Assembly (NCBI GenBank): GCA_022819855.1
Contig: JAJEGN010000004.1
Location: forward strand, 47,128 to 111,127
Direction: 5' to 3'
Origin: Gammaproteobacteria bacterium
Lineage (GTDB): Bacteria; Pseudomonadota; Gammaproteobacteria; Steroidobacterales; Rariloculaceae
Length of the DNA stretch: 64,000 bases
The notes beneath the pieces are model-generated. The model was not told the origin of the DNA, searched no databases, and worked only from the letters and a program-made list of their open reading frames with translations. The position numbers were made by a program, and so were the translations under genes. This document shows, one piece after another, positions 1 to 45,133 of this stretch. Numbering within the stretch: position 1 is the stretch's first letter; each line of letters begins with the position of its first letter.

Positions 1-641
1 ACGAGCTGCAGGTGCTCGCCGTAGCGGGTGAAGAACTCGGTCATCGTTGCGAGATCGCTCGTCGGGGCGCCGTTGCGCTGCAGCCAGCCCGTCTTGATGT
101 GGGTCGTGGCGACGACGAGCGTGTTGCGTTCCCAGCGGCCCGTCGAGAAGCCCGCCCAGGAGTGCGGCGCGAGTTCGGACGGATGGGGCCTGCCGTCCAT
201 CCAGATCGTGCGCGGCCGGCCGTAGCTGCCGGCGAGCCGGTAGGCGATGAGATCGCCGGAGCGCTCGTCGACGATCTTCGAGAAGCGGATCGTTGCGGGT
301 CCGCGCAGTGCGTAAGTCACGACATGCGGGATGCACTGCCATTCGGGGATGGAGCGCATCGCCTCGTCCCAGGTCGCCGCCCGGAGGAATCCCGCCGGGT
401 TCAGCGGCAGACCCGTGTAGTCGCCGAGCCGCATGCCGCCGCGGTGCGGAAGATCCTCGTGAAAGATCGCGCCCCATTCGCCCGAGACGTCGACCTGGGC
501 GGCGGCGGATCCGACAAGGGCGAGGCTTGCCGCGCAGATCAGTGTGGCGAGTCGGGAACGGCCACCGGAGCGCCCGTGCCTTGGGCAAGCGCGGCGCCTG
601 GTGCGCTGGCGGGCAAGTCCTGCAGCAGTCGTCTGCCGCAA
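1..641 (-). CDS. Secreted uncharacterised Cys-pair / W-x-G-x-T-L family protein, truncated by window start (not in ORF track)
   Basis: Manual minus-strand translation: ...ASLALVGSAAAQVDVSGEWGAIFHED...WQCIPHVV...RTIWMDGRPHPSELAPHSWAGFSTGRWERNTLVVATTHIKTGWL. Shares motifs with 6123..7046 and 7075..8145. TTG start at 641 is tentative. Confidence 0.8.
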   Translation of the reverse strand, partial: MRQTTAAGLARQRTRRRACPRHGRSGGRSRLATLICAASLALVGSAAAQVDVSGEWGAIFHEDLPHRGGMRLGDYTGLPLNPAGFLRAATWDEAMRSIPEWQCIPHVVTYALRGPATIRFSKIVDERSGDLIAYRLAGSYGRPRTIWMDGRPHPSELAPHSWAGFSTGRWERNTLVVATTHIKTGWLQRNGAPTSDLATMTEFFTRYGEHLQL

Positions 642-645
642 GCGA

Positions 646-3600
646 CTACTCCCGGCCGGCCTCGGCCAGCATGACAAGCGACGGCAGCAGGAACAGTATG
701 AAGAGCCCGGAGAAAACGAGTCCGCCGAGCATGCTGACCACGAACGGCACGAGGAACAGCAGCGCCTCGCTGCGTTCGTAGAGAAGCGGAGCCAGCGCCA
801 GGACAGTGGTGAGGCTCGTCAGGAAGACCGCCCGGAATCGGCTGCGGGTCGCCGCGGATGCTGCCGCGATCGCCGGGAGCATCTCGTTCTCGCGGCGCAT
901 CGTGTTGTAGCGATCCATGAGCACGAGCGCGTCGTTGACGATGACGCCGCCGACGCCGATGACGCCCATCAGGGACAAGGCGCCGAAGTCCCACCCCAGT
1001 ATCCAGTGACCGATGACGGAACCTGAGAACGCGATCGGAATTCCGAGGACCGCGATCAGGGGCTTCCAGTAGCTGCGCAAGAATGCCGCGATGAGGACGT
1101 AAATCCCGATCAACAGCAGCGGAACCAGCACGGCCAGCGTTGCGATCAGCGTCGCTTCTTCGCGTATGCTGCCGTCAGCTTCGATCGTGAGATCGGGGAA
1201 TCTCTCGAGCAGGCCGGGAACGATGTTCGCGTTGATCGCCCGCCTCGCCTGCAGCGGCGTCACCGCCAGCGAGTCGGCACTGGCGCTCACGCGGGCGGTC
1301 TGTTGGCCGTCGATGCGGGTCAGTGTCGACAGTTCGCGCTGCTCGATCAGGTTCGCCACGGTCGCGAGCGGGACCTCGCCACCGGATGTTCCGGCTTCGC
1401 GGCCCGGACGGTGGATACGCTCGCCGGCGAGTTCTGCGAGACTGCGGCGCTCTTCCGCCGGGTATCGCACCACGACCCTGACTTCATCCTGGCCGCGCTG
1501 AATGCGCTGGACCTCCGCCCCGTAAAGGGTTGCGCGCAACTGTGCGCCGATCACCGCCGGCGAGAGTCCGGCCGCCACTCCCGCGGGAGTGAGTTCGACT
1601 TCCAGGTGTCGTTTGCCGAGCGTCAGGCTGTCGCTGATTCCGTAGACACCCGGTATCGCGGCCATACCGGCCGTCAGTTCGCGTGTGGCCTCTTCGAGCG
1701 CGTCGCTGTCGTCGTGCTTGAGGGCGTATGCGATTCCGGGCGCAGCCCGGGTGCGCGTGGAGAAATACACGACCTCCTCGAGGTACGCGACATCGCCGAC
1801 GTTCTCCCGCCATTGCCGCTGAACGTCCGGAATGGAGGCGCGACGCGTCGGAGTGTCGTTGAGGTGGACCACGACTGACGCCAGGTGGCTTCGGTTCGGC
1901 AACAGCGAGCGCGTCGCAGGCACGAGGCGGTTGCCGGCCATGAGGCTGATCGATTCCACCGTTGTCCCGTCGAATTGATCGTTGAGGGCTTGAGCGGCGG
2001 AGACGAATCGTTCGGCCGTGGCAAGGGTGACCTCGAATGGCGATCCCACCGGCAGGGTCAGGTCCGCCTGAATGTCGTCGGCGACGTTGGTCATCGTATC
2101 GAAGTAGATGACCCTGACCGCGTCGATACGGATCAGCGCCAGGGCGAGGACCACAAGCAGCACACCGCAAACGGGCGCGAACCAGACGCGGCGAATCGAC
2201 CACGAGACCGCGGGAACGACGATCCTGTCGCGAAACGTGAGCAGCCGGTCTCGCGCGCGCGCCTGGATGGTGCTCAGCGGAGGGAGGCTCCACGGTTTTT
2301 CATGTGCGAGATGCGCGGGCAGGACGAAGAAGGCTTCGACCAGGGACACAATCAGTACGAACAACGCCACGTACGCGAAGACATTGACGATCTGGATTCT
2401 TGGCGACGTGATAAAGAAAAACGGCGTGAAGGCGAGAATCGTCGTGACTGCGCCGATGGTTATGGGGCCGACCATGGCCCTTGCGCCGGAAACGGCAGCC
2501 TCGAGCGGGCCCTTGCCGCCCTCGCGTTCCGCCGCGATGCTCTCGCCGACGACCACGGCATCGTCGACCACGATGCCCACCATGAGGAAGAACGCGAAGA
2601 TCGTGCCGAGGTTCAACGTCAGGTTCGCAGGCCCGAAGAACATCAGCGAGCCGATGAAGGACAAGGGAATGCCCACCGTGACCCAGGTGGCCACGCGCAG
2701 GTCGAAGAACAGCAGCAGGCACAGCAGGACCAGCACCGTACCGATGACGGCGTTGCGAACGATGAGCGATATCCTGTCGACGGCTTCGTTGCCGCGATCG
2801 TTCCACAGGCTGATGGCGATGCCGTCCGGGGGGCGCATACCGGAGAGCCAGCTTCTTATTTCCTCGCCCATCGTGACGATCGACTGTTGCCCGGTTGCGT
2901 CGACGCGAACCAGCACGGCGGGGTCTCCATCGACTCGCGTGACGATGTCCTCGTCGACGAATCCGTCGCGAATCTCCGCCACGTCGCCGAGCGTCACGAT
3001 GGTCCCGCCGAGCCCGGTGATGAGCGGGATGTCCTCGAATTCGTCGCCGAACTGCCGCTTGGAAACCGTGTGCAGCACCAGTCCGCCGGCGCCCGTGCGC
3101 AGTTCGCCGAACGTGAGATTCAGCGAGGCTCGCCGCACCGCTTCGCTTATCAGGTTGATCGACAGCGCATTGCGGCGCAGATCTTCTTCGCTGACCTCGA
3201 TCGTGATTTCGCGATCTCGCGTGCCGAGCAGCGAAACCTGGGAAACGGACGGCAACTCCAGCAACCCTTCGCGAATCTCCTCGGCCGCCGACCGAATCTC
3301 GTTCTCGGTCGCCGTCGGCGACGAAACGGCGAGTGTCAGGACCTCGATCTCGACCCGGTCGAATTCGATTTCAGGCCGCTCGGCCGTGACCGGCGGAAAG
3401 TTCTCGATCTGGTTCACGGCGTTCTGGACATCGTCGAGAACGTCGCTGGCGTTGGCGAAGGTAGCGACTTCGACGCGCACCCGCGCCAGACCCTCGTTGG
3501 CGGTAGCCTCGACCCGCGCCACGCCCGGCAGCCCGATGACGCTGTTCTCGATCCGGCGAACGATGTCTTCCTCGATCTCGCGCGGCGACGTTCCGGGGGC

Positions 3601-3756
3601 CCTGACGCTCACCATGACTCCGCGCAGATCGAGTTCGGGAAAACTCTGGATGGGTAGATTGGCGCCCGCGAGCAGGCCGCCGACGATGAGGAAGGCCAAC
3701 AGCAGGTTGGCCGCGATCGGATTTCCGGCGAAGTAGGCTATCGGCCCCTTTTGCAC
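646..3756 (-). CDS. RND efflux transporter permease (AcrB/AcrD/AcrF family)
   Basis: NPIAANLL N-terminus, GIVVDDAVVVGE in TM4, GVIVNDALVL and RFRAVFLTSLTT in the C-terminal half. Start reassigned to GTG 3756 (ORF track start 3864). Confidence 0.92.
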   Translation of the reverse strand: MQKGPIAYFAGNPIAANLLLAFLIVGGLLAGANLPIQSFPELDLRGVMVSVRAPGTSPREIEEDIVRRIENSVIGLPGVARVEATANEGLARVRVEVATFANASDVLDDVQNAVNQIENFPPVTAERPEIEFDRVEIEVLTLAVSSPTATENEIRSAAEEIREGLLELPSVSQVSLLGTRDREITIEVSEEDLRRNALSINLISEAVRRASLNLTFGELRTGAGGLVLHTVSKRQFGDEFEDIPLITGLGGTIVTLGDVAEIRDGFVDEDIVTRVDGDPAVLVRVDATGQQSIVTMGEEIRSWLSGMRPPDGIAISLWNDRGNEAVDRISLIVRNAVIGTVLVLLCLLLFFDLRVATWVTVGIPLSFIGSLMFFGPANLTLNLGTIFAFFLMVGIVVDDAVVVGESIAAEREGGKGPLEAAVSGARAMVGPITIGAVTTILAFTPFFFITSPRIQIVNVFAYVALFVLIVSLVEAFFVLPAHLAHEKPWSLPPLSTIQARARDRLLTFRDRIVVPAVSWSIRRVWFAPVCGVLLVVLALALIRIDAVRVIYFDTMTNVADDIQADLTLPVGSPFEVTLATAERFVSAAQALNDQFDGTTVESISLMAGNRLVPATRSLLPNRSHLASVVVHLNDTPTRRASIPDVQRQWRENVGDVAYLEEVVYFSTRTRAAPGIAYALKHDDSDALEEATRELTAGMAAIPGVYGISDSLTLGKRHLEVELTPAGVAAGLSPAVIGAQLRATLYGAEVQRIQRGQDEVRVVVRYPAEERRSLAELAGERIHRPGREAGTSGGEVPLATVANLIEQRELSTLTRIDGQQTARVSASADSLAVTPLQARRAINANIVPGLLERFPDLTIEADGSIREEATLIATLAVLVPLLLIGIYVLIAAFLRSYWKPLIAVLGIPIAFSGSVIGHWILGWDFGALSLMGVIGVGGVIVNDALVLMDRYNTMRRENEMLPAIAAASAATRSRFRAVFLTSLTTVLALAPLLYERSEALLFLVPFVVSMLGGLVFSGLFILFLLPSLVMLAEAGRE

Positions 3757-3787
3757 AGCAGCTCCCGGTATTGCGAACGGCGGGCGC

Positions 3788-4852
3788 TTACTGGCCGACG
3801 ATGTCGACCGCCAGACCCTCTGCGGCGCCCGGCAGAGTTCCGACGACGATGCCCTGGCCGGCATCGAAGCTCTCGACCACCAGGCCCTCGCTCGTGCGCC
3901 CGATCGCCCGCGGCGTGACGAGGCTCAGGGCGCCGTCGTTGACGACCCAGACCGTATCGCGCTGCTGCAGGACGGCGTCCGGCAGCGTGTAGACGTTCTC
4001 GAACGCCGGCCCGTCGATCTCGATCTCGACGAAGCTGCCCGGCGGGGGCAGCGCGGCCGTCGTCTCGTCCGTTGCGAAGCGCAGAAATATCGATGCGAGA
4101 CGCGTCTGCGGCGCGACGACGGATGAGACGCGCACGACTTCCGCCGCGTAGGTCTCCGAATCCGCCTGGATGCGGGCGGTACGTCCGACCGCTGGCCCGA
4201 GGTAGTCGAGATCCTGCGTGCTGATCGGGGCATCGACCTCGAGCCCGTCGCTTCGATAGACGATGCCCATGGTCGCCGCTGGACCTGCGTATTCGATCGA
4301 TCCGACGAGTTCGCCGACTTCGATGTCCGAATTGACGACCTGGACTTCAAAAGGATACGAGATTTCCGTTCGGCCGAGTTCAAGCTGCGCGAGCGCAAGT
4401 TCCGCCTGCGCGGCGTCCAGTGCCGCGCCGCCGGCCGGCGCGGCCAGTCTCACCCCGGCTTCGGCGGCTTGCACGCGCAGTTCATACTCGCTCGGGTCGA
4501 TCCTGACCAACGGTTCGTTCGCCGGGATCGTTCCGCCGTTTCGAAACTGCGGCGAAACGAAGACGACGCGGCCTTCGACCTCCGACATGACGGTGATGCG
4601 GGCATCGGTCCTGACGCTGCCGGTCAGTTCCACCGTGAGCGACTGCGCCGTCACGGACGGCTGCAGCACGGTGACCAGCGCGTTTCCGGCCTCGTTCGGC
4701 GCGATTACACCGACGCTGAGTTCCTCGCGGTCGGGCGCGCGTGCGAGGTAGAGCGCGATTACGATGACGACCGCGATCAGCGCCGCCTGCGCGTAGCCTG
4801 TCCAGTTCGCCCGGTCGTCGCGGTTTCCGGTATCGCCCGATTCGTTTGCCAC
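3788..4852 (-). CDS. RND periplasmic adaptor (membrane fusion protein)
   Basis: N-terminal TM helix, lipoyl half-motifs (SEVEGRVV...LVRIDPSEYEL; RTEISYPF), PPGSFVEIEI; directly upstream of the RND permease. Confidence 0.88.
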   Translation of the reverse strand: MANESGDTGNRDDRANWTGYAQAALIAVVIVIALYLARAPDREELSVGVIAPNEAGNALVTVLQPSVTAQSLTVELTGSVRTDARITVMSEVEGRVVFVSPQFRNGGTIPANEPLVRIDPSEYELRVQAAEAGVRLAAPAGGAALDAAQAELALAQLELGRTEISYPFEVQVVNSDIEVGELVGSIEYAGPAATMGIVYRSDGLEVDAPISTQDLDYLGPAVGRTARIQADSETYAAEVVRVSSVVAPQTRLASIFLRFATDETTAALPPPGSFVEIEIDGPAFENVYTLPDAVLQQRDTVWVVNDGALSLVTPRAIGRTSEGLVVESFDAGQGIVVGTLPGAAEGLAVDIVGQ

Positions 4853-5006: not shown

Positions 5007-5708
5007 CTAGCCCCGCGGCGGTTCGCCGATGCCGCCGATGCTCCCGTCCTCGCGCTCCACGGGCGTGCGGCCGAGCACGATGTCGAAGTTGGCCGTGAGT
5101 TCGCCGATCGTCGAGCCCGGCAGGGGGTGGTACTCGACCATGAGCGTCTCGAGCGCGGCCGGATCGCCGACGCGGCGCAGGATGCGGTCGCGCGGGTTGT
5201 CCTCGTGGCCCTTGACGAGCGCCTGGGTCGCCATGATGCGCTGCCCGGACTTGCTGACCGCGACGTGAATGTGCGCCGCGCGGAAGGTGCCTCCGAGCGT
5301 GTAGGAGGTGGGCTTGATCGTGCGGAAGTAGTAGCGCCCCTCGGCGTCGGTCAGAAAGCGTCCGTAGCCCTGGAAGTTCGTGTCGAGCCTGCCGTCGTGC
5401 CGACCCTCGGTATGGATGTACGAGCCGTGCATGTCGGACTGCCAGATCTCGATGAACGCGTTGCGCACGGGGCTGCCGCTCGGGCCGAGCAATCTGCCCG
5501 TGAGGTGCGTGATCTCGCCGATGGCAGGCGTGATGCTGTCGTTGATGATGAGCAGGTCGTTGTCGGTATCGAGCGGCATCCGGTCCGGATAGAAGGGACC
5601 GTCGCCGGTTCGCGCCGTTTCCGTCAGCGTGGCCGCGAAGACCCCGGGAACCGTGAACGCTGCGGCGCCGACCGTCATGCCGTGCAGGAATCTGCGCTTG
5701 GTCAACAT
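5007..5708 (-). CDS. Intradiol ring-cleavage dioxygenase family protein with Tat-like signal
   Basis: GPFYP, IEIWQSDMHGSY, YYFRTIKPTSY, RAAHIH (Tyr/Tyr/His/His iron ligands); N-terminal KRRFLHG. Confidence 0.88.
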   Translation of the reverse strand: MLTKRRFLHGMTVGAAAFTVPGVFAATLTETARTGDGPFYPDRMPLDTDNDLLIINDSITPAIGEITHLTGRLLGPSGSPVRNAFIEIWQSDMHGSYIHTEGRHDGRLDTNFQGYGRFLTDAEGRYYFRTIKPTSYTLGGTFRAAHIHVAVSKSGQRIMATQALVKGHEDNPRDRILRRVGDPAALETLMVEYHPLPGSTIGELTANFDIVLGRTPVEREDGSIGGIGEPPRG

Positions 5709-6122
5709 GATTGATCCCCCGATATTTCGTTGCTTGCTTCTTCGCGTACGAGACTACTCCCGCAGAAGGCGTCGGGCAAGCGGCTTCGTTTGGGACCATG
5801 ATCGATGTTTTCGATCACCGGGTCAGCCGCAGGCACATGGTGCGGGGTCCGGCAATCCGCGCGGCGCTGCGCACGTTGCGGGTTCGGCGGTACGCGGCGC
5901 GGACCGGCGCGCAAGCGACGCCCGTGCTGCGCGCGCACCGGAGAACGATCGAACTCATCGTCGAGCGCGCCTGATACCGCGAGGGTGTCCGGGCAGGGAC
6001 CCCGGTTGCCACGGGCAAGGTTCCTTTCGATAATCGGACGAGTCGCGCCGCAAGCGCAGCCGGGCGTCGCCGCAAGCGCTGACGCCCGCTCGTAGCGCCG
6101 TTGAGCCGGGGGTATCAACGCC

Positions 6123-7046
6123 ATGCAGATGGGATTCCGAGCAAGCTTGATCGCGTTCGCGTCGGTCCTGGCGGGCATCGCACTGGGCATGCAGGCGCCG
6201 CTTGCCGGGGCTCAGGACGGCGAAACCTACACCGCGCCGCGCACGGCCGACGGCCGACCCGACCTCAACGGCTTCTGGCAGGCGCTCAACACGGCCCATT
6301 TCGATCTCGAGGCGCACCCGGCGCGGCCGGCGATGGCGCTGATCCCGGCCCCGGCGCCCCCGGACCCGCCTGGACTGGACCGCGCGACGCCCGTCGAGTT
6401 GCCGGCGCCGGCCGTGCGCGCGCTTGGCGCCGTCGGCGGTGTGCCCGCGGGCGAGAGCGTGGTGGTCGGCGGCACGATTCCCTACCAGCCCTGGGCGGCG
6501 GCGATGCAACAGGAAAACGCCGCGAACTGGCTGGAACGCGACCCCGAGATCAGGTGCTTCATGCCGGGCGTGCCGCGCGCGACCTACATGCCGTATCCAT
6601 TTCAGATCCTGCAGGGTAGCGACCAGATCCTGATCGCGTACGAGTTCTCCGGTACCACCCGCATCGTTCACATGAACGACGTCGGCACGAGCCCGGCGCC
6701 GACCTGGATGGGCTGGTCGCGCGGCCGCTGGGACGGCGACACGCTCGTCGTCGAGGTCACGAACTTCAACGGCCAGACCTGGTTCGACCGGGCCGGCAAT
6801 TTCCACAGCGACGCGCTCCGCGTCGTCGAACGCTACAGGCCGCTGAGCCCCTGGCACCTGCAGTACGAAGCGACGATCGAGGACCCGAACGTGTTCACGC
6901 GGCCATGGACGATTTCCATGCCGCTCTACCGGCGCCTCGAAGCCGACATGCAGTTGCTCGAATACAAGTGCGTGGAGTTCGTCGAGCAGTTGATGTACGG
7001 CGAGCTTGGTATCGTCGATCCGGCGACGGGGCAGCGCAATGAATGA
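6123..7046 (+). CDS. Secreted uncharacterised Cys-pair family protein (DUF6152 partner)
   Basis: Signal peptide; GRPDLNGFW, RCFMPGVP, MGWSRGRWDGDTLVVE, TIEDP, EYKCVE. Confidence 0.85.
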   Translation: MQMGFRASLIAFASVLAGIALGMQAPLAGAQDGETYTAPRTADGRPDLNGFWQALNTAHFDLEAHPARPAMALIPAPAPPDPPGLDRATPVELPAPAVRALGAVGGVPAGESVVVGGTIPYQPWAAAMQQENAANWLERDPEIRCFMPGVPRATYMPYPFQILQGSDQILIAYEFSGTTRIVHMNDVGTSPAPTWMGWSRGRWDGDTLVVEVTNFNGQTWFDRAGNFHSDALRVVERYRPLSPWHLQYEATIEDPNVFTRPWTISMPLYRRLEADMQLLEYKCVEFVEQLMYGELGIVDPATGQRNE

Positions 7047-7074
7047 GGCGGAGATGCCGCCCGGGAGGTTGCAG

Positions 7075-8145
7075 ATGCAGCATCATCAAGTGCGGGTCCG
7101 GCGACCGTTGGCGGTGGCCTTGCTTGCGGCGCTCGCCTGCGGACATCTCGCCGCGCAGCAGCCGGACGAGACCGAGGCCGATGCCCGGGCACAGTCAGCG
7201 GCCGAGCCGGCGTGGACCCAGCCGCGCACGCCCTGGGGCGATCCGGACCTGCAGGGCGTGTGGCGCTACGAAGCGACGATCCCGCTGGAGCGGCCCGCAC
7301 GCTATGCAGACCGCGCGTTCCTGACCGATGAAGAGATCGCCGCGATCGCCGAGACCGAAGAGGAACTCGCCGCGGCGCGGCTCGCGGGCCTCGACGGCAC
7401 CGACGTCGGCCGCCAGCCCGTCGCCGACTCGCCGATTCGCGGCAACGAATACAACAGCTTCTGGCAGGACCACGGGCGCGCGCGCCAGGTCTACCGGCAG
7501 ACCTCGCTGATCGTCGATCCGCCCGACGGCAGACTGCCGTATACGGACGACGCGCGCGTCGCGGCTCAGCGCACGGCCGCGCGCTACGGTGTCGGGCCGT
7601 ACGAGTCATATCTGGATCCCGATACCGGCGAGCGCTGCCTGACCGACGGCGTGACCGCGATCATGTGGCAGGGTCCGAACGGCGGCCATAACCGCATCGT
7701 GCAGAGCCCCGGCTACGTGACGATCCTGCACGAGGAGTACCGGGACCGCCGCATCATCCCGCTCGACGGGCGCGCGCCGAGCGAAATCCCGCAGTGGTTC
7801 GGTGACGAGGTGGGCTATTGGGACGGCGACACGCTCGTGGTCGAGACGACGAATTTTCTCGACCGGACCAACTACGAATGGGCGAATCTCTGGATGCGCG
7901 CTTCGGAGAACCTCAGGATCGTCGAGCGTTACACGCGCGTCGGCGACAACGCCATGGAATACACGATCACCGTCGAGGACCCGAAGACCTTCACGCAACC
8001 CTGGACCGCGCTCATACCGATCCTGAGGACGCCGGAAGGCACGCAGATCTACGAATACGCCTGTCACGAGGGCAACTACGCGATGGCCAACCTGCTGCGC
8101 GGCGCCCGCAATCAGGCGGCGAGTGACGAGGAAGACTCCGAATGA
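7075..8145 (+). CDS. Secreted uncharacterised Cys-pair family protein (DUF6152 partner)
   Basis: GGAGG RBS before ATG 7075 (alternative ATG 7039); GDPDLQGVW, ERCLTDG, GYWDGDTLVVETTNF, TVEDP, EYACHEGN. Confidence 0.85.
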   Translation: MQHHQVRVRRPLAVALLAALACGHLAAQQPDETEADARAQSAAEPAWTQPRTPWGDPDLQGVWRYEATIPLERPARYADRAFLTDEEIAAIAETEEELAAARLAGLDGTDVGRQPVADSPIRGNEYNSFWQDHGRARQVYRQTSLIVDPPDGRLPYTDDARVAAQRTAARYGVGPYESYLDPDTGERCLTDGVTAIMWQGPNGGHNRIVQSPGYVTILHEEYRDRRIIPLDGRAPSEIPQWFGDEVGYWDGDTLVVETTNFLDRTNYEWANLWMRASENLRIVERYTRVGDNAMEYTITVEDPKTFTQPWTALIPILRTPEGTQIYEYACHEGNYAMANLLRGARNQAASDEEDSE

Positions 8146-8277
8146 CCCGTATCCCGCCGTTCGCGGTTCCACGAGCCCCTGTTTCGTACCGGCCGTGGAC
8201 GTCAGGCATCCGCTTGTCCGGACGTTTGCGGGCAGCCGTTCCCCCCGTGGCGCCCGTCGCTATCCATGGAGATTCCA

Positions 8278-8682
8278 ATGCGCAATAAGCTTCTGGTTCC
8301 GATCGTTGCGCTCGGGCTGCTTGCCGGCGCCGCCGAGGCGGCCGCGCATCATGCGTTCGCGGCCGAGTTCGATTCCAGCCAGCCGATCGAGCTGCAGGGC
8401 ACGGTCGCGAGGGTCGAGCTCATCAACCCGCATTCCTGGATTCACCTCGACGTGACGCGGCCCGACGGCACCGTCGAACGCTGGATGATCGAGGGCGGAC
8501 CGCCGAACGCGCTCTTCCGGCGCGGCTTCACCCAGGATTCCCTGCCTGTCGGCACCGAGATCGTCGTCGAGGGATTCCGCTCGAGGGACGGGACGCTCAA
8601 GGCGAACGGCCGCGACATCACGCTGCCGGACGGCACTCGGCCGTTCACGGGTTCGTTCAGTACCGTCGGAATCGAACGCTAG
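8278..8682 (+). CDS. DUF6152-type secreted protein
   Basis: Signal peptide ending AAA, then HHAFAAEFD; INPHSW; WMIEGG. Confidence 0.85.
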   Translation: MRNKLLVPIVALGLLAGAAEAAAHHAFAAEFDSSQPIELQGTVARVELINPHSWIHLDVTRPDGTVERWMIEGGPPNALFRRGFTQDSLPVGTEIVVEGFRSRDGTLKANGRDITLPDGTRPFTGSFSTVGIER

Positions 8683-8767: not shown

Positions 8768-9688
8768 TCAAGCGAGACTGTCGAACAGCTCCTCCTGACG
8801 GCGCCGCTCGGCGGCATCCGGCAAGCGCCCGCGTGCGGCGCCGAAGTTGTCCTCGACGTGGCGCACCTGGCGCGTGCCGGGGATGGCGACCGTCACCGCC
8901 GGGTGCGAGATGATGTACTTGAGGAAGAACTGCGCCCAGCTCGTGCAATCGAAGTCGGCCGCCCACTCGGGCAGCTCCTGGCCCTCGACGGCGTTGAAGA
9001 TCGACCGACGGGCGCCCCGGAAGGGCAGGTTGATCATGACGGCGATGCCGCGGTCGGCCGCCGTCGGCAGCAGGCGCTCGGCCACGTCACGATCGCCGAG
9101 CGAGTAGTTGAACTGCACGAAGTCGACGTCCTCGCTGAGCATGAACTGCTCCATCTCCCCGTGCTGGTCGCGCGAGGACACCGATGCGCCGATGTAGCGG
9201 AAGCGGTTGGCCGCCTTCCACTCGCGCAGCAGCGGCAGCTCCGTATCGGTATTGACGAGCTGATGGACCATCATGAGATCGATCTGCTCGGTCCTGAGCC
9301 GCTCGAAGGAATTGCGAAAACCATCGACGCCGCGAATCTGACCGCGGATATCGGTCTTGGTCGCGAGGAAGAGCTCGTTGCCGATGCCGAGTTCGGTTGC
9401 GAGGTCGCCGATCACGGCTTCCGAAGTGCCGTAGGCCGCCGCCGTGTCCATGACCTGGCCGCCGAGTTCGACGAACCGCGCCATCGTATCGCGCAGCGGC
9501 GCGCGCTCCTCCTCCGACTCGCCGACGCCGTACCGGTTCGTGCCGATGCCGATCGGCGGGATCATCTCGCCGCTTGAAGGGATGGGTTTGAGGATCGCTT
9601 CGCCCGATTGTGCGAACAGTTTCGGCGTCCCCAGGGTCACTGCAGCTCCAGCTCCGGCCTTGAGCGCATCGCGTCGTGTCATCGGCAT
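8768..9688 (-). CDS. Aldo/keto reductase with Tat-like signal
   Basis: TRRDALK; IGIGT, MDTAAAYG, LATK, IDLMMVH, VQFNYSL, AIPGT. Confidence 0.9.
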   Translation of the reverse strand: MPMTRRDALKAGAGAAVTLGTPKLFAQSGEAILKPIPSSGEMIPPIGIGTNRYGVGESEEERAPLRDTMARFVELGGQVMDTAAAYGTSEAVIGDLATELGIGNELFLATKTDIRGQIRGVDGFRNSFERLRTEQIDLMMVHQLVNTDTELPLLREWKAANRFRYIGASVSSRDQHGEMEQFMLSEDVDFVQFNYSLGDRDVAERLLPTAADRGIAVMINLPFRGARRSIFNAVEGQELPEWAADFDCTSWAQFFLKYIISHPAVTVAIPGTRQVRHVEDNFGAARGRLPDAAERRRQEELFDSLA

Positions 9689-9969
9689 GGCTTTCTCACC
9701 TCGTTGACAAGGGTTTTCGGCTGACCGGGAACGATCGCGCGTCCCGGCGGTCCACGAACGACAAGGCGGCGGATTGTACCGCGAAAAGATGCGGCCGCCG
9801 CATTTCGCAGCATGGGGCGCAGATTGTCTGAACCATGTGCCTCGTCATGGTTGCATTTGCCCCACAAGCGGCTCAAATCGTATATCATCGCGCGCTCGTT
9901 TCACGGGGGAAGCACGAAGCAGCCGGACCGCGCGGTAGCGCCGGCCCGCTGCGCGAGACACGTTCTCTC

Positions 9970-12159
9970 ATGACGCATCCACTACCCCTCCCGCAAATCG
10001 CTCTGCTGGTCGCCTGCGCCTCGCTGGGCGCGATGGCGCCGCCGGGCGCATTCGCTCAGCCCGCATCGTTGCCCGGGGAAGTGACGAAGTCCGTCCGCAT
10101 CCAGCGAACGGCCGAGCCCCCGGTGATCGACGGCGTGATGAACGAGGAGATCTGGCTGCGCGCGCCGATCATCGACGACCTGCACCAGGTCAATCCGGTC
10201 GAGTACGGCGAACCCAGCGAGCGCACCGAAGTCCGCGTGCTCTATGGCCGCGACGCGCTCTATGTCGGGGCGCGCCTCTACGACAGCGAGCCCGCGCGGA
10301 TCAATGCCCGCGTCCTGCGTCAGAACCAGCCGATCGGCTCCGACGACCGCTTCTTCGTGCACATCGATCCGTTCAACACGCGCCGCGGCGGTTACGCCTT
10401 CGGAGTCAACGCGAACGGCGTGCGCTACGACGGGATCTACGAGGGTCCGACGGACCGGCAGTTCGACTGGGACGGGATCTGGCAGGCGGCGGCGAGCATC
10501 GACGAGCAGGGCTGGGTCGTCGAGATCGAGATCCCGTTCAAGACCATTTCCTTCGATCCTCGCGCCGATCGATGGTGGATGAACTTCACGCGCAACATCG
10601 AACGCAAGAACGAGAGCATTGCCTGGATGTCGCGCAACCGGCGGACCGACCTGAGTTCCATGGGCGAGATCCGCGGTATTTCGCAGATCGAGCAGGGCCG
10701 GGGGCTCGACATCGTGCCGACCGCGAGCGTGCGCGAGCGCCGCGCCATCGGCGCCATCCCGGCGAACAGCGCCATGGAACCGTCGCTCGACGTCTTCTAC
10801 AAGGTGACGCCGCAGCTCAACGCCTCGCTGACCGTGAACACCGATTTTTCGGCCGTGGACGTCGACAGCCGGCAGGTCAATCTGACGCGGTTCAGCCTGT
10901 TCTTTCCCGAGCAGCGCGACTTCTTTCTGCAGGATGTCGACATCTTCCAGTTCGGGCGTCTCGAACAGGACGGCAGGCCGTTCTTTTCGCGCCGGCTCGG
11001 TATCAGCCGGACCGGTCAGGAGGTGCCGCTCGATTTCGGCGGCAAGCTGTCCGGCCGGGTCGGGCGCTTCGATGTCGGGGCGCTTGCGGTGCGGCAGGAA
11101 GCCTACGGGGACGTTGACGCCACGACGGCGTTCGTCGGACGGGTCGCCGCGAACGTTCTCGAGGAATCGAGCGTCGGCATGATCGTGACCCAGGGCGATC
11201 CGCGCTCGAACCTCGACAACACCGTGGGCGGCGTCGACTTCCGCTATCTGAACAGCCGCTTCGCCGGCGGCCGCGGCCTTGAAGGCGTTGCCTGGTTCCA
11301 GCAGTCCGATTCCGAGGCGCTTGACGGCGACGACACGGCGCTCGGGTTCCGCGTAAACGTGCCGAGCAATACGGGGCTGCGCGGCGGCTTCGGCATGACG
11401 CGAATCGAGGAGAACTACAACCCGGCGCTGGGCTTCGTACGCCGCACCGGCATCGAGCAGATCCGGTTCAATGTCGGCCATACCTGGCGCCCAGGCAGCG
11501 GTCCGGTCAGGACATTGTTCTCCGGCATCGACTACGACCGCATCGACTATCTGGACACCGGGGAGATCCAGAGCGAAGGGCTCAGGTTCCGGGCCGTCGA
11601 CCTCAATCTGAACTCGCAGGATTCCTTCGGCCTGAGCTGGTCGCGCGACCGGGAAGGCCTGCGCAGGCCGTTTCGGATCTCGGGCGGCATCGTCATCGAG
11701 CCGGGGCTCTACACCTTCGACACGATCGATCTCTCGTTCCGTGCGGGCAACCAGCGCGCGGCCGGCGGCGGCGTGTTCCTGAACAGCGGGAATTTCTACG
11801 ACGGCGAACGGATCGGCACCGGCACGTTCTTCAACTGGCGGCCAAGCCGGCATTTCCGGACGAACGTGAGCTATCAATACAACGAGATCGACCTGCGCGG
11901 CGGCAGCTTCGTGACGCGCATCGCGAGGGTCACTCTCGAGGCCGTGTTCTCGTCGACCCTGTCGTGGATCAACCTGATTCAGTACGACAACGTGTCCGAG
12001 ACCATCGGCATCAACAGCCGGCTGCACTGGATTCCGCGGGCCGGCCGGGAGGCGTTTCTGGTCCTGAACCACAACCTCGCCGACCCGGAACGCGACAACA
12101 GTTTCGTTTCGAGCTTTTCTGAACTGACGCTCAAGTACAGCTACACTTTCCGTTTCTAG
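9970..12159 (+). CDS. CBM9-like / DUF5916 outer-membrane protein
   Basis: PVIDG..E..W, TEVRVLY, WVVEIEIPF, LTVNTDFSAVDVD, FPEQRDFF, PFFSRRLG, C-terminal KYSYTFRF beta-signal. Confidence 0.85.
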   Translation: MTHPLPLPQIALLVACASLGAMAPPGAFAQPASLPGEVTKSVRIQRTAEPPVIDGVMNEEIWLRAPIIDDLHQVNPVEYGEPSERTEVRVLYGRDALYVGARLYDSEPARINARVLRQNQPIGSDDRFFVHIDPFNTRRGGYAFGVNANGVRYDGIYEGPTDRQFDWDGIWQAAASIDEQGWVVEIEIPFKTISFDPRADRWWMNFTRNIERKNESIAWMSRNRRTDLSSMGEIRGISQIEQGRGLDIVPTASVRERRAIGAIPANSAMEPSLDVFYKVTPQLNASLTVNTDFSAVDVDSRQVNLTRFSLFFPEQRDFFLQDVDIFQFGRLEQDGRPFFSRRLGISRTGQEVPLDFGGKLSGRVGRFDVGALAVRQEAYGDVDATTAFVGRVAANVLEESSVGMIVTQGDPRSNLDNTVGGVDFRYLNSRFAGGRGLEGVAWFQQSDSEALDGDDTALGFRVNVPSNTGLRGGFGMTRIEENYNPALGFVRRTGIEQIRFNVGHTWRPGSGPVRTLFSGIDYDRIDYLDTGEIQSEGLRFRAVDLNLNSQDSFGLSWSRDREGLRRPFRISGGIVIEPGLYTFDTIDLSFRAGNQRAAGGGVFLNSGNFYDGERIGTGTFFNWRPSRHFRTNVSYQYNEIDLRGGSFVTRIARVTLEAVFSSTLSWINLIQYDNVSETIGINSRLHWIPRAGREAFLVLNHNLADPERDNSFVSSFSELTLKYSYTFRF

Positions 12160-38877: not shown

Positions 38878-39822
38878 ATGGCGGACGATCTTAACCGCAG
38901 CGGCGCGGCGGCGGCAGCGGCGGGCAGCGCCGGGGATTCCGAGGGACTGATTGCAAGATTCCTCGACTCGATCTGGATGGAGCGGGGCCTGTCGGAAAAC
39001 ACGCTCGACGCGTACCGGGCGGACCTGTTCGCCCTCAGGGAACGGCTTGCTGCAAGGTCCGTTGCGCTCGTGCACGCGCGCCGCGCCGATCTTCTCGATC
39101 ACATCGCCTCCCGGGTCGAAGGCGGCGCGCGGCCCAGGTCCACGGCACGCCAGCTCTCGAGCTTTCGACGCTTCTATCGTTATCTCTTCCGGGAAGGGCT
39201 GATCCGCGAGGATCCGACCGCCAACATCGCAATGCCGAAACTCGGGCGCGCGCTGCCGCACTCGCTGACCGAGGGCGACGTCGAGGCGCTGCTCGCGGCG
39301 CCCGATACGGCCGAGCCGCTTGGGCACCGGGACCGGACGATGCTCGAGCTGCTTTACGCCACGGGCCTGCGCGTGTCGGAACTCGTCGGTCTGCGGATGG
39401 GGCAGGTCAACCTGAACCAGGGCGTCGTGCGGGTCGTCGGCAAGGGCCGACGGGAGCGGCTCGTGCCGCTCGGCGACGAGGCGCAGGACTGGCTGCGCAG
39501 ATTCGTGGCCGGTCCGCGCGTCGACATACTGCGCGGGCGCCAGACGGACCGGCTGTTCCCGACGCGGCGCAGCGACTCCATGACCCGCCAGGCGTTCTGG
39601 TACAACATCAAGCGGTATGCGAAGAAGGCCGGCGTCAGGAAGAAGCTCTCGCCGCACACGCTGCGCCACGCGTTCGCGACACATCTGCTCAATCACGGCG
39701 CCGACCTGCGCGTCGTGCAGTTGCTGCTCGGTCACAGCGACGTCTCCACGACCCAGATCTATACGCATGTCGCGCGGGAACGCATGAAGGAACTGCACGG
39801 CCAGCACCATCCGCGCGGTTGA
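38878..39822 (+). CDS. xerD: Site-specific tyrosine recombinase XerD
   Basis: ERGLSENTL, YATGLRVSEL, GKG, HTLRHAFATH, LGH, STTQIYTHV; xerD-dsbC synteny. Confidence 0.96.
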   Translation: MADDLNRSGAAAAAAGSAGDSEGLIARFLDSIWMERGLSENTLDAYRADLFALRERLAARSVALVHARRADLLDHIASRVEGGARPRSTARQLSSFRRFYRYLFREGLIREDPTANIAMPKLGRALPHSLTEGDVEALLAAPDTAEPLGHRDRTMLELLYATGLRVSELVGLRMGQVNLNQGVVRVVGKGRRERLVPLGDEAQDWLRRFVAGPRVDILRGRQTDRLFPTRRSDSMTRQAFWYNIKRYAKKAGVRKKLSPHTLRHAFATHLLNHGADLRVVQLLLGHSDVSTTQIYTHVARERMKELHGQHHPRG

Positions 39823-39911
39823 GCCGCCCGGTCGCGGCCCGCTTCCGGGCGCGGTCTTTCTTGCTAGAATTGCCCGTGCGCACGCACTCGTGCGCAACCC
39901 GGGAGACTGCC

Positions 39912-40655
39912 GTGAACAGATGTTGGATCGCGCTTACGCCTGGCCTGATTCTTGGCGCCGGCATGCCGGCCGCGCTCGCCCAGGACGACGCTGCCGAACG
40001 CGTCAAGGAGGAACTCGCGACGAAGCTCCTGGGCGTCGAGGCGACCGACATCGGCGAATCCCCGATCGAGGGGCTCTACCAGATCACCGTGGGCACGAAT
40101 GTGGCCTATGTTTCGGCCGACGGACGTTTCCTGCTGCGCGGCGAGATCTACGACATCGAGACGAGCCGGAACCTGACCGAAAACGTGCGCGCGACGACGC
40201 GAACCGAAATGCTTGGCTCGGTCGATCCCGAAACGATCCTCGTCTTCAGCCCGCCCGAGGACGAGGTCAGGCACACGGTCACGATCTTCACCGATATCGA
40301 CTGCGGGTACTGCCGCCAGTTTCACCGCGAGATCGACCGCGTCAACGAACTCGGCATTGCCGTGCACTACCTGTTCTATCCGCGTACGGGGCCTGATACG
40401 GAATCGTGGACCAAGGCCGACAAGGTCTGGTGCGCCGACGACCGCAACACCGCGTTTACCGGCGCGACGGTCGGCAACGTCGTTCCCGAGGAGACCTGCG
40501 CGGAGACCCCGGTACGCGAGCACTTCAATCTCGGCATCGAAGTCGGCGTTCGCGGCACGCCGTCCATTTTCTCCGCTTCCGGTGAGCTGCTCGGCGGCTA
40601 TCTCCCGCCCGACGAACTGCTGGCGGTGCTGGACGAGTCTCCATCCCGGCCGTAA
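39912..40655 (+). CDS. dsbC: Thiol:disulfide isomerase DsbC
   Basis: FTDIDCGYC, GVRGTP, GYLPP; follows xerD. Confidence 0.92.
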   Translation: MNRCWIALTPGLILGAGMPAALAQDDAAERVKEELATKLLGVEATDIGESPIEGLYQITVGTNVAYVSADGRFLLRGEIYDIETSRNLTENVRATTRTEMLGSVDPETILVFSPPEDEVRHTVTIFTDIDCGYCRQFHREIDRVNELGIAVHYLFYPRTGPDTESWTKADKVWCADDRNTAFTGATVGNVVPEETCAETPVREHFNLGIEVGVRGTPSIFSASGELLGGYLPPDELLAVLDESPSRP

Positions 40656-40702
40656 GCCCGCCCTGATTTCCGCAAAGCACCGGCAATAACAAGGAGAAGC
40701 CG

Positions 40703-41205: not shown

Positions 41206-42030
41206 ATGTCACGACTCGTACACTTCGCGCTGATCGCCATGATCGCGGCGCCCGCCGCGGCGCTCGCGCAGACCGCGGCCGAGCGCCGCGAAGCCTTGAG
41301 CAACATGATCCCGCAGCATCCGGAGTACCTCGGCGCGCTCGCTCCGGAGAATCTCAATGCGGAACGTCCCGAACCGCCGTTCAACCTGACGGGCACCTGG
41401 TTCGTCGACCTCAGCGAAGGGTTCGCGAATTTCAGGTACGGGCCGCCGTACCCGGAGTTCATCGGTCAGGCGAGAGAGGATTTCGAGGAGGGCTTGCGCG
41501 CGCGCGCCGAGGGCCGTCCCTATCGCGACGCGATCGGTCAGTGTTTCCCGGCCGGCATCCCGATGATCATGACGCGGGTCTGGCCCATCGCGATGGTGCA
41601 ACTGCCGACCGTGATCTACATGGTCTCGAACTTCAACAACAGCTTCAGGCAGATCTTCCTCGACGGGCGCGACTACTCGGACCCGGATTACGTGATCTTC
41701 ACCTACAACGGCGAGTCGATCGGTCACTGGGAGGGCGATACGCTCGTCGTCAACACGCGCTACGTCGAGACGTTCAACCATTTCATCGATTCGGGCATCC
41801 CGATTTCCGAGGACTTCCACATGCAGGAGCGCATCCGCCTGCTCGAGGACGGCGAGGTGCTCCAGATCGAGCACATCATGACGGACCCGAACAACTGGGT
41901 CGGGGAGTGGCGCAACACCAAGCAGTGGCTCAGGGTCGATTACACGGATATCGGCGAGGTCGAGTGCCTGCCGAACCTGAACGAGAATCTTCCAAGCACG
42001 CAGGCCGGTCAGGCGGGACTCTCCGAGTAG
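41206..42030 (+). CDS. Secreted uncharacterised Cys-pair family protein (DUF6152 partner)
   Basis: Signal peptide; NLTGTW, QCFPAGIP, RQIFLDGR, GESIGHWEGDTLVV, TDP, EVECLP. Confidence 0.85.
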   Translation: MSRLVHFALIAMIAAPAAALAQTAAERREALSNMIPQHPEYLGALAPENLNAERPEPPFNLTGTWFVDLSEGFANFRYGPPYPEFIGQAREDFEEGLRARAEGRPYRDAIGQCFPAGIPMIMTRVWPIAMVQLPTVIYMVSNFNNSFRQIFLDGRDYSDPDYVIFTYNGESIGHWEGDTLVVNTRYVETFNHFIDSGIPISEDFHMQERIRLLEDGEVLQIEHIMTDPNNWVGEWRNTKQWLRVDYTDIGEVECLPNLNENLPSTQAGQAGLSE

Positions 42031-42078
42031 GCGAGCCTGCAAGTGCACAGGCAAGGGAACGAAACGGGGTACGAGACA

Positions 42079-42516
42079 ATGAAGACGGTCGGACGAGTCG
42101 GACTTTCGGCTGCGTTGGCTGCGGCTGCGGCTGCGCTCGGCATGCTCGGCGCGACGCTCGGGTGGGCCCATCACTCCACCGCGGCCTTCGACAATGACAC
42201 CGTGGTCAGGATCGACGGCACCGTGACGCAGTTCCGCTGGATCAACCCGCATGCGTCCTTCAAGGTCGACGGGGTCAGCGAGGGCGACGCGCCGGACGGG
42301 CTCTGGACCGTGGAGATGACCGCCGCGAACGTCCTGATCAACCAGGGCTGGAGGCGAACGTCGCTACGGGTCGGTGACGAGGTGACCGTCTACGTCAACC
42401 CGCTGCGCAACGCCATCACGCTCAACGACGGGAGCCAGGGCGGCCTGTACGTCGGCGTCGAGCTGGCCGACGGCACGACGCTTGGCCGCACGGACGGCAC
42501 GCCGGACGACGAGTAG
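42079..42516 (+). CDS. DUF6152-type secreted protein
   Basis: Signal peptide ending GWA, then HHSTAAFD; WINPH; WTVE. Confidence 0.85.
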   Translation: MKTVGRVGLSAALAAAAAALGMLGATLGWAHHSTAAFDNDTVVRIDGTVTQFRWINPHASFKVDGVSEGDAPDGLWTVEMTAANVLINQGWRRTSLRVGDEVTVYVNPLRNAITLNDGSQGGLYVGVELADGTTLGRTDGTPDDE

Positions 42517-42639: not shown

Positions 42640-44073
42640 GTGAATTGGAGGACTCCCGGGATCGTTGCAATCGCGCTTGCTGCTGCGGTGTTCGCATCCG
42701 TGGCCGCAGCGCAACGCGTCGCCGATCCGGGATTCACGAGCGTCGGCCGCGGGGCGCCGCTGCCGGTCGCGATTCCGGCCGAGTCGTTTACCGACATGGC
42801 GGACACCGAAAAATATCCGCCTGACGAGATCGAGGGTCTGCCGGAACGCCACTGGATGGTCGGACCCTACATCGTGAATCGCGAGGGCGAGGACGGCGAG
42901 GCCGTCGAGGTGCGGGCCGGGTCGGCCTGGAACGGCGCCGCGCCGGAGGGCGTCGAGCCGCTCGAGGTCGACATCTTCACGAGCGAGGACTTCTACGCCG
43001 ACCGCGAACTGTGGAGCGACCCGCGCTATTTCCGCTGCAACAGCAGCTTTGCGATTGAAGCGGCATGGAGCTCGGGCACGATCGGCGACGATCCGCCGGC
43101 GACGGCTGCCTGGGGATATTGCGACCGCGACTACCCGCGCGAGGCGATCGTGAGCCCCTATCCGTTCGATACGGCCGAGGCACATTACGCGGCGCTGCTC
43201 GAGGAGACCCGGGCGCGCGGCGGTCCGACCGAACACAGCTACGCCACCGTTCCGGGCGACTGGAACGGCCGCTACGTCTGGCCGCGCGGCCAGAACTGGT
43301 ACGCGGAGCACCTCTGGAACCAGGTGCCGACGATCCTGTCGCTATTGACCGAGGAATACCGGACCCGCATGGTCCAGGAGGCGTATCACAACGCCCATTC
43401 CAATGCGGCTCAATGGCCGGGCCAGTATTGCTGGCCGGAAGGCTTCATGCGGCGCTGGCACTACCACGCGGTCACGAACCAGCCGCACTGGATCACGGTG
43501 ACGCCGACTCTCGTGCAGTTCCTGGCCGGCGACGTCCAGAACGTGCTCACGATCGTCCATGTCGGCCGGTCGTTCAACACGGACGGCGCGGTTCCCCGGC
43601 TCGGCGCCGACGTGCCGCGCTGGTACGGCGAGACGATCGGTTTCTGGGACGGCGACGTGCTGATCACCTGGGCGTCCAACATCCAGGGCTGGAAGGTGCA
43701 CGGCAACTTCGATTTCTCCAACCGCCTGCAGACGATCGAGATCTACACGCCGAACCGTGACGAGAGCGGCGCGCTCGTCGGCCTCGATCACGAGGGCATC
43801 TTCTACGACCCCGAGGGGCTCGTCGAACCGATCCGCATGGTTCGCAACCTCGTCAGGATCAGCGATTACGACGAGGGCGATCCGTTCACCTTCATCGAGT
43901 GTCTGCAGACCATCTACCCGATCGACGGCATCGCGACGCCCGTGTCGCCCGGTACGGTGATCGACTTCACGGTGCCGGACATGTACGGCCGTCCCTGGGC
44001 CCGGATCTGGGAGGAATTCCACGAGCAGGGCATGGAGCGCCCCGGGGACGACGACATCTTCAGCTTCGAGTAA
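42640..44073 (+). CDS. Secreted uncharacterised Cys-pair family protein, long form
   Basis: [42 protein letters not shown]; extra N-terminal domain with two more Cys. Confidence 0.82.
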
Positions 44074-44908: not shown

Positions 44909-45133
44909 CTTCCGGCGCTCGTCCCAGGTTCTCCGAATCCGGTCAGCCAGGCGGATTCCCGCCGACACCCCTGATTATGTTCAATTTTGGAAAAGGTTTC
45001 CATATGTAACCCGCACACCGGGGATTTGAGCTTGCGTGCGGCAACGAATCCCTGGCCGCGGATCGCTGCAACACCATCCTGAGCGGCGCGCGTTTTCTGG
45101 TACGGTGTTGCGGTTCTGCAGGGGAGGGCTTGC

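Follow-up and report, generated by a model that had tools for sequence, protein, structure and literature searches.

Gene content of the locus

The subject of this study is a three-gene unit, A1-A2-B1, in a 64,000-nucleotide stretch of DNA (referred to throughout as the window; contig JAJEGN010000004.1 of assembly GCA_022819855.1, positions 47,128 to 111,127) from a sponge-associated gammaproteobacterium of the Rariloculaceae, whose genome measures 3.73 Mb in 22 contigs with 65% G+C. The unit encodes two exported proteins of an unnamed family, called partners here, and a small protein of the Pfam family DUF6152. A second locus of the window, A3-B2-A4, and the truncated gene A5 encode further members of these two families. 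A first-pass annotation, made from the sequence alone, had interpreted the genes as a paralogue-expanded, two-subunit periplasmic metalloprotein system, and the positions that it gave were borne out by open reading frame (ORF) calls for A1, A2, B1, A3, B2, A4 and A5. The features are listed below.

6123..7046, + strand: A1, first putative barrel partner, 307 amino acids, exported, of an unnamed family (ORF and AlphaFold2 model)
7075..8145, + strand: A2, second putative barrel partner, exported (the ORF opens at 7006; likely start at 7039 or 7075)
8266..8682, + strand: B1, DUF6152 protein of 138 amino acids with a predicted OB fold (Pfam PF19649; likely start codon at 8278)
41206..42030, + strand: A3, putative barrel partner of the second locus, 274 amino acids (ORF and partner alignment)
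42043..42516, + strand: B2, second DUF6152 protein, predicted mature end HHSTAAF preceded by WA (Pfam PF19649)
42640..44073, + strand: A4, long putative barrel partner, 477 amino acids (ORF and partner alignment)
3..677, - strand: A5, partner paralogue truncated by the window edge, N-terminus at 677 (ORF and partner alignment)
6006..6034, + strand: sigma-70-like promoter match upstream of A1, TTGCCA-17-GATAAT (consensus match only)

The motifs described in the first-pass annotation were recovered in both tandem partners, as PDLNGFW/PDLQGVW, RCFMPG/RCLTDG (the C-x-x-x-G motif), GRWDGDTLVV/GYWDGDTLVV, EDP and EYKC/EYAC; the two proteins are 34% identical. B1 carries the predicted His-His mature end (HHAF, preceded by AAA) together with NPH and W-x-x-E. 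The pairing was also said to recur at 41.2-44.1 kb, where A3, B2 and A4 were found, with B2 beginning 12 bp past the end of A3. A fifth partner had been placed at the start of the window; this gene, A5, lies on the minus strand, aligns with the other four and is one of two tandem minus-strand partners in the genome. The promoter-like site at 6006-6034 fits the consensus at 10 of 12 positions, is the only such site between 5600 and 9000 (shuffle mean 0.3) and might act as a promoter upstream of A1. The DNA of 6123-8682 was found in sponge metagenomes, the best-matching of which may be where the sequence originated, with no RNA dataset among the listed carriers.

The DUF6152 protein and its candidate metal site

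Both small proteins belong to PF19649 (DUF6152), with an E-value of 8.3e-32 (109.6 bits) for B1 and 7.4e-26 (90.6 bits) for B2, each exceeding the curated cut-off of 27 bits that defines membership. B2 is 32% identical to B1, and the HH, NPH and W-x-x-E columns are common to both. A Pfam scan of B1 and B2 (E <= 0.01) returned DUF6152 alone, with no match to DUF4198, DUF6702 or Ang-1/2. The family has no assigned function in Pfam, and no paper naming it was found in the literature searched.

The AlphaFold2 model of B1 was built on a 45-sequence alignment, with a mean predicted local distance difference test score (pLDDT) of 87.5. It contains strands at residues 35-53, 56-64, 70-76, 98-106 and 112-119 and a helix at 80-85, thereby showing the five-stranded closed beta-barrel with a helix between strands 3 and 4 that defines the oligonucleotide/oligosaccharide-binding (OB) fold. 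The best VIA match was a single-stranded DNA-binding protein (Z 9.2, root-mean-square deviation (rmsd) 2.9, 82 aligned residues), the listed VIA matches were overwhelmingly OB-fold proteins, and Foldseek gave an E-value of 6e-4 and a template modelling (TM) score of 0.72. As judged from the model, B1 is an OB-fold protein. Its fold alignment starts at residue 37, so the segment HHAFAAEFD would form an N-terminal extension ahead of the barrel.

The His-His pair was present at the expected position, behind a hydrophobic stretch, in 96 of the 98 DUF6152 copies of the genome. In the site preceding it, position -1 is Ala in 93 of these 96, and position -3 holds a small or aliphatic residue in 95. 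Given this A-x-A-type site and the hydrophobic stretch, signal peptidase I should leave His-His as residues 1 and 2, and a His is thus the predicted first residue of the mature protein. Conservation across the 98 copies was 98% for each of the two His and for the His of NPH, and 87% for both the Glu and the Trp. In the 45-sequence alignment of B1, residues H28, H29, G45, P55, H56, E76 and G96 were invariant. His56 opens strand 2 and Glu76 closes strand 3; since these strands pair as an antiparallel hairpin in an OB fold, the two residues are expected to lie next to each other. The set of His-His, NPH His and Glu would provide a binding site for a transition metal.

The partner protein family

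The five partners of the window had no match in Pfam or NCBIfam. Among 150 partner representatives Pfam identified no common family and only stray single matches, among them a cytochrome c fusion and a fragment of DUF6152; for 77 members searched at E <= 1, no family occurred in more than two and no calycin family was found. Sequence-profile searches of the PDB with both families gave best E-values of 0.09 and 1.4 and no solved relative. A confident match to a characterised family would have refuted the first-pass annotation, but no characterised family matched either protein in the Pfam, NCBIfam and PDB profile searches. Orthologues of A1 reached 70-98% identity, and its close homologues are all labelled hypothetical. 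A profile search of 1.84 billion cluster representatives (50% identity clusters) retrieved 17,555 partner representatives at E <= 0.001 and 9,909 at the stricter E <= 1e-10. One database relative of 330 amino acids (P0255) has a cytochrome c domain (PF13442, E 2e-15) fused before the partner core, a possible pointer to electron transfer.

The five window partners align with 10 invariant columns, which include the first Cys, G-x-W and a Glu. Among the 134 partners of the genome, conservation was 93% for the G and 85% for the W of the G-x-W motif, 96% and 83% for the two Cys, 90% for an Arg, 95% for a Glu and 97% and 88% for D-P. The Cys pair may form a disulfide. The AlphaFold2 model of A1 (mean pLDDT 84.5, 77-sequence alignment) has, in order, a first strand, an ill-defined insertion at residues 83-103, a helical stretch and nine strands; the GFWQ residues make up the strand at 50-53. 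Its best fold matches were 2qo4 in VIA (Z 8.4, rmsd 3.5, 108 residues) and a Foldseek hit with an E-value of 9e-4, and the further matches formed a consistent set of fatty acid-binding proteins (FABPs) and retinol-binding proteins, nitrobindin and lipocalins. With these middling scores, A1 is modelled as an FABP/calycin-like barrel.

In the partners, an insertion of 33-124 residues separates the first strand from the first Cys. The idea that barrels with short and long inserts pair differently with DUF6152 was discarded, as the median insert showed no such difference in the genome (55.5 residues in partners adjacent to DUF6152, 41.5 in fused partners and 48 in non-adjacent ones).

Linkage, fusion and co-diversification

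The genome of the window contains 98 copies of DUF6152, all of them above the Pfam cut-off, and a custom hidden Markov model (HMM) likewise returned 98. Partner frames numbered 128 in the first HMM pass and 134 in the second. Paralogue expansion, as proposed in the first-pass annotation, is thus evident far beyond chance, with the motifs present family-wide. Together the families comprise about 208 genes (98 plus 134, minus 24 fusions that would be counted twice), an estimated 6% of the gene set or roughly one gene in 16, the denominator being inexact because the crude gene caller reported only 2,736 genes. The modules are spread over 20 of the 22 contigs as PD, DP, PPD and PDP units (P, partner; D, DUF6152). 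Median identity among paralogues was 32% for DUF6152 and 26% for the partners, and on their sequences the paralogues are old.

A partner was located within 300 bp of 81 of the 98 DUF6152 copies, on the same strand in 77 of these cases, and a DUF6152 gene was within 300 bp of 86 of the 134 partners. The two families are fused in 24 open frames, each of which encodes a signal peptide, the HH-DUF6152 domain, a linker and a complete partner, including the G-x-W strand and both Cys; one such frame, of 345 amino acids, lies at C10:209560-210594. Fusion is also found elsewhere, in a 459-member ESM Atlas cluster of 375-amino-acid proteins, all with PF19649. A search of longer proteins with B1 for fusion partners yielded only 7 matches and was uninformative; one of these (P0394), with Glyoxalase-family domains, may be a gene-calling merge.

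For the 77 adjacent pairs, paralogue distances in the two families were correlated (Mantel r 0.485; permutation mean 0.001, standard deviation 0.043), a value reached by none of 999 permutations, and in 32 of the 77 pairs the nearest DUF6152 paralogue corresponded to the nearest partner paralogue. This correlation shows that each pair duplicates and diverges as a unit, which alone is no proof of contact. The two proteins might be mere co-regulated neighbours without contact, the His-His end having no role in metal binding. The 24 in-frame fusions and the fusion cluster elsewhere, the co-diversification and a gene order kept across phyla (see below) all oppose this explanation and leave it scarcely credible.

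A complex of A2 (residues 29-356) and B1 (residues 28-138) was predicted with an ipSAE of 0.59 (0.59, 0.53 and 0.62 in separate runs), compared with 0.00 for the best of three controls; the runs agreed in at least 67% of contacts, with a partner pLDDT of at least 78. In calibration, 58 of 80 solved complexes passed the mark, as against 2 of 110 mismatched pairs, and the passes at an ipSAE of 0.60 or below consisted of only 7 of the 80 solved complexes plus both mismatched pairs. The complex expected in the first-pass annotation was accordingly recovered only weakly, and A2 and B1 may associate as modelled. As the fusions already make partner binding likely, this score adds little, and it is silent on the position of the metal site, which is proposed to face the mouth of the barrel.

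Distribution of the module

Each of the 24 genomes sampled from the same taxonomic family carried both protein families, with 4 to more than 91 copies of DUF6152 per genome and 52 to more than 91 in most of them; genomes of only 2.2-2.4 Mb hold 77 to 127 DUF6152 candidates. In the low-copy genomes, the counts of the two families agreed (6/6, 4/3, 18/26 and 47/43). Among 16 genomes from other families of the order, the partner was absent (0/16) and DUF6152 was found in one. The joint presence of the families, one of the checks proposed with the first-pass annotation, was therefore clear. An even sample of 200 genomes was used to survey the phylum. DUF6152 was detected in 14 of these, 13 of which have a single copy, all weak matches except that in G054 (E 4.7e-25). 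The partner was detected in one genome only, G228 (13 copies), which is also the one genome with multiple copies of DUF6152 (7), six of them beside a partner. In G228 the long-form partners cluster alone (C1:817071-820455 and others), and only short, core-only forms adjoin DUF6152.

A scan of one genome per species for A1 orthologues gave 637 confirmed stretches; 78 loci were retained. These loci span the Acidobacteriota and the Gamma-, Alpha- and Betaproteobacteria, and derive from Bryobacterales, Vicinamibacterales, Terriglobia, Holophagales, Thermoanaerobaculia, Rariloculaceae, Multivoraceae, Pseudohongiellaceae, Micropepsaceae, Burkholderiaceae and others. DUF6152 was encoded within the 4-kb flanks of the A1 orthologue in 57 of the 78 loci, so that adjacency is strongly enriched here as in the genome of the window, and partner-partner-DUF6152 was the commonest exact order (18/78). 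When 25 trios from elsewhere were compared with the six proteins of the window, the first gene matched A1 best in 24 cases, the second matched A2 in 23 and the third matched B1 in all 25. A1-A2-B1 is thus an orthologous operon common to several phyla. Sponge symbionts, marine Gammaproteobacteria and soil Acidobacteriota carry both families in abundance; the literature found on Rariloculaceae, Multivoraceae and UBA10353 consists of community surveys only. Taken together, these data describe an ancient, co-diversifying module of two or often three genes, sometimes fused, for an exported His-His protein modelled as an OB fold and for barrels modelled as calycin-like, common to several phyla.

Neighbouring genes

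Of 2,554 other genes called in the genome of the window, 370 are at most two genes away from a module. Pyrroloquinoline quinone (PQQ) dehydrogenases with a C-terminal cytochrome c were over-represented among them (13/31, 4.5 expected, p 1.7e-4), as were genes of the metallo-beta-lactamase fold (9/17, p 2.1e-4) and amidohydrolases (4/5, p 1.9e-3). Weaker trends were seen for tannase, DUF5916/CBM9, soluble glucose/sorbosone dehydrogenase and TonB-dependent receptors, the last not reaching significance (6/21 and 3/8, p 0.07 and 0.10). No enrichment of ABC permeases was observed (p 0.35). PQQ dehydrogenase plus cytochrome c flanks 11 of the 78 loci in other phyla, DUF6644 also flanks 11, and tannase, DUF5916 and DUF1552 likewise occur in these flanks. 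Two recurrent unnamed flanking ORFs (382 and 244 amino acids) were considered as partner relatives and rejected, with hhalign probabilities of 3.8% and 0.1%; they may not be genes.

These neighbours bear on the possibility that the module is a set of non-catalytic binding proteins, in which the barrels, with or without the OB-fold subunit, would capture small hydrophobic or amphiphilic compounds in the periplasm and pass them to transporters or enzymes. The expansion would then resemble that of orphan solute-binding proteins, with a metal site that is structural or holds the ligand. Proteins of the FABP/lipocalin-like fold are typically carriers, the paralogues are very numerous with diverging pockets (median partner identity 26%), 48 of the 134 partners have no DUF6152 neighbour, and TonB-dependent receptors occur near the modules. 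However, the TonB trend is not significant, ABC permeases are not enriched and the neighbours that are enriched are enzymes. In addition, a near-invariant His-His/His/Glu set at about 32% identity looks like conserved chemistry rather than ligand contacts. This explanation is therefore considered unlikely, if a serious contender.

Within the window, A1-A2-B1 sits between genes for two proteins that look like exported oxidoreductases. The first (5007-5708, minus strand) is an intradiol-dioxygenase-like protein (Dioxygenase_C, E 5e-25) that weakly resembles the beta subunit of protocatechuate 3,4-dioxygenase and has, by eye, a signal-like N-terminus; the second (8768-9688, minus strand) is an aldo-keto reductase with a twin-arginine signal match. 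Between A5 and the dioxygenase-like gene, an AcrB-family resistance-nodulation-division (RND) pump of 1072 amino acids and a HlyD-like adaptor are encoded (646-4852, minus strand). A 774-amino-acid CBM9-like plus DUF5916 protein is encoded at 9835-12159 (plus strand); nine such genes are present in the genome, four of them within two genes of a module, and one was found beside a partner locus of another phylum (L066). Directly upstream of A3-B2-A4 (38878-41107, plus strand) are xerD, dsbC (DsbC_N plus a thioredoxin-like domain with a CGYC motif) and a gene for a DoxX/MauE-like membrane protein with a weak HvfX-like match in NCBIfam (E 0.001), and an IclR regulator (44081-44968, minus strand) faces the locus. 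The genome as a whole encodes 31 PQQ dehydrogenase-cytochrome c paralogues (e.g. C7:45955-48576), 17 metallo-beta-lactamase-fold proteins, 11 soluble glucose/sorbosone dehydrogenases and 14 ankyrin-repeat proteins.

DUF6152 paired with DUF6644

In some genomes of the phylum survey (G187, G184, G196 and probably G147), DUF6152 directly precedes a gene for a small membrane protein with weak matches to DUF6644. Five matches to DUF6644 (PF20349) were found in the genome of the window, two of them right after DUF6152 at C10:76518 (region C10:76518-77921) and one right after the most divergent DUF6152 at C2:23012 (region C2:23012-23836). In single-copy form, this barrel-free pairing was seen in at least three other Proteobacteria; L132:4426-5271 and L131:4513-5342 are among the regions concerned.

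This arrangement raises the question of metal acquisition or homeostasis, with DUF6152 as a chaperone of the CopC/YcnI/DUF4198/anglerase type that passes on copper, nickel or zinc and the barrels as adaptors. Most of the known bacterial N-terminal-His proteins outside the lytic polysaccharide monooxygenases (LPMOs) serve metal trafficking (PMC10952591; PMC12537917). The DUF6152-DUF6644 pairs, of which the genome itself has two or three, would parallel CopC-CopD and the anglerase-permease fusions. Against this, the DUF6152 copy number in most of the 24 family genomes, those of 2.2-2.4 Mb included, far exceeds any trafficking need, and no copper- or nickel-resistance genes were among the recurrent neighbours in the genome or at the 78 loci. 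CopD-like membrane partners were also dismissed, PF05425 having 0 matches in the genome (E <= 0.01) while control genomes responded. Metal trafficking as the function of the module is consequently regarded as decidedly improbable.

Proposed function

The preferred interpretation is that A1-A2-B1 and A3-B2-A4 each encode a two-component periplasmic metalloprotein module. Cleavage of the signal peptide would free the His-His end of the OB-fold subunit, DUF6152, and this end, the His of NPH and the Glu at the end of strand 3 would together chelate one transition-metal ion, most likely copper or nickel by analogy with other N-terminal-His proteins. The barrel subunits, which are fused behind DUF6152 in 24 paralogues, would bind it and supply a pocket for a small organic ligand, so that the barrel probably holds the ligand and acts together with DUF6152, the large subunit presumably setting specificity. 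As some 100 ancient paralogues keep the same metal site, whereas their barrels have drifted apart to about 26% identity, one chemistry may be applied to many ligands across the set. The constant metal residues, the diverging barrels and the enriched redox and hydrolytic neighbours favour a catalytic role over pure carriage, most likely in redox-type periplasmic conversions, in concert with the PQQ quinohaemoprotein dehydrogenases and the hydrolases whose genes are close by. The two-subunit metalloprotein interpretation of the first-pass annotation was supported by these analyses. The full statement, that the module is a periplasmic metalloprotein of two subunits in which the metal chemistry stays constant and the ligand pockets vary, and that it probably acts as a redox catalyst, is about as likely to be right as wrong.

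Several observations weigh against this interpretation. The closeness of His28, His29, His56 and Glu76 is deduced from OB-fold topology and not from a measured distance. The Z-score of 8.4 for the barrel is about the typical best score of the tool for models without a clear match. No His is conserved in the 134 partners (the best His column reaches 39%), and C-x-x-C-H occurs in none of their frames. The partners that lack a neighbouring DUF6152, together with the seven long-form partners of G228, all of which lie away from any DUF6152, suggest that barrels can work alone. Conversely, each of four genomes (G054, G196, G184 and G187) has a single DUF6152 but no partner at E <= 0.001, and the pairing with DUF6644 is easier to reconcile with metal handling than with enzymatic activity. 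The enrichments among neighbouring genes are modest, with p-values that are uncorrected for about 25 families and that derive from a crude gene caller.

A more specific form of the proposal is that DUF6152 and its barrel constitute a new class of periplasmic mono-copper oxygenase or peroxygenase, with a histidine-brace-like site on an OB fold, a pocket supplied by the barrel and electrons from PQQ dehydrogenases. This would be an improbable outcome; if true, the module would correspond, in bacteria and for small molecules, to the pairing of fungal LPMOs with cellobiose or PQQ dehydrogenases, and the roughly 100 paralogues in each genome would be adapted to different recalcitrant organic compounds. 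More generally, if the His-His end binds metal, DUF6152 would be a new metalloprotein scaffold and among the largest unexplained periplasmic families of environmental bacteria, and the module would probably be tied to the turnover of diverse organic matter. The partner family is itself large, yet has no Pfam model, NCBIfam model or solved structure. The hypothesis is directly testable on one small protein, and natural single-chain fusions exist.

Comparison with known systems

An N-terminal His freed by signal cleavage chelates copper or nickel on unrelated folds, as described in PMC10952591 and PMC12537917, and the latter reports that DUF4198, DUF6702 and two anglerase domains bind nickel, cobalt or copper. 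DUF6152 is not named in the text or in two supplement files of PMC12537917. Like the signal-strapped families described there, namely DUF4198 (nickel), DUF6702 and Ang-1/Ang-2, DUF6152 is a predicted periplasmic protein with a conserved His directly after the signal peptide and with further conserved His or carboxylate residues, and the location of some DUF6152 copies beside DUF6644 resembles that of Ang beside a HupE/UreJ membrane protein. Unlike these families, to which it is unrelated in sequence, DUF6152 has a predicted OB fold, which is not among the folds described in that paper; its first two mature residues are both His, it is paired with or fused to a barrel, and it is present in about 100 copies.

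The combination of an N-terminal His with a second conserved His is shared with histidine-brace proteins (LPMOs AA9-AA17, PmoB, CopC, PmoF1/PCuAC, X325/Bim1 and YcnI; PMC10952591). In a histidine brace, copper is held in a T-shape by the NH2 and pi-N of His1 and the tau-N of a second His, for which the invariant His56 of NPH would be the candidate in DUF6152. The carboxylate of DUF6152, a Glu, resembles those of CopC and X325. Its scaffold differs from those of the histidine-brace proteins, the substrate pocket would sit on a separate subunit and, unlike in the LPMOs, no polysaccharide-binding surface is evident in the module. No paper joining a histidine brace with an OB fold was found in the literature searched. 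Fungal LPMO families are expanded, and they are reduced by cytochrome-carrying or PQQ-dependent dehydrogenases; the enrichment of PQQ dehydrogenase-cytochrome c genes near the modules recalls these LPMO-reducing enzymes.

The predicted barrel of the partner resembles the calycins (FABPs and other intracellular lipid-binding proteins (iLBPs), lipocalins, nitrobindin and ZinT) in having the FABP order of a first strand, helices and nine strands. G-x-W in the first strand is a hallmark of calycins and was present in the first strand of the partner. ZinT, which binds metal in the periplasm, is calycin-like and has a His-rich N-terminus. Unlike the calycins, the partner has a long insertion, a conserved Cys pair and a secreted OB-fold companion that looks obligatory. 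The pairing of the two families is absent from the literature searched, and neither has a described function or structure. As a system, the module is thus without known counterpart, while its folds and the principle of the N-terminal His are familiar.

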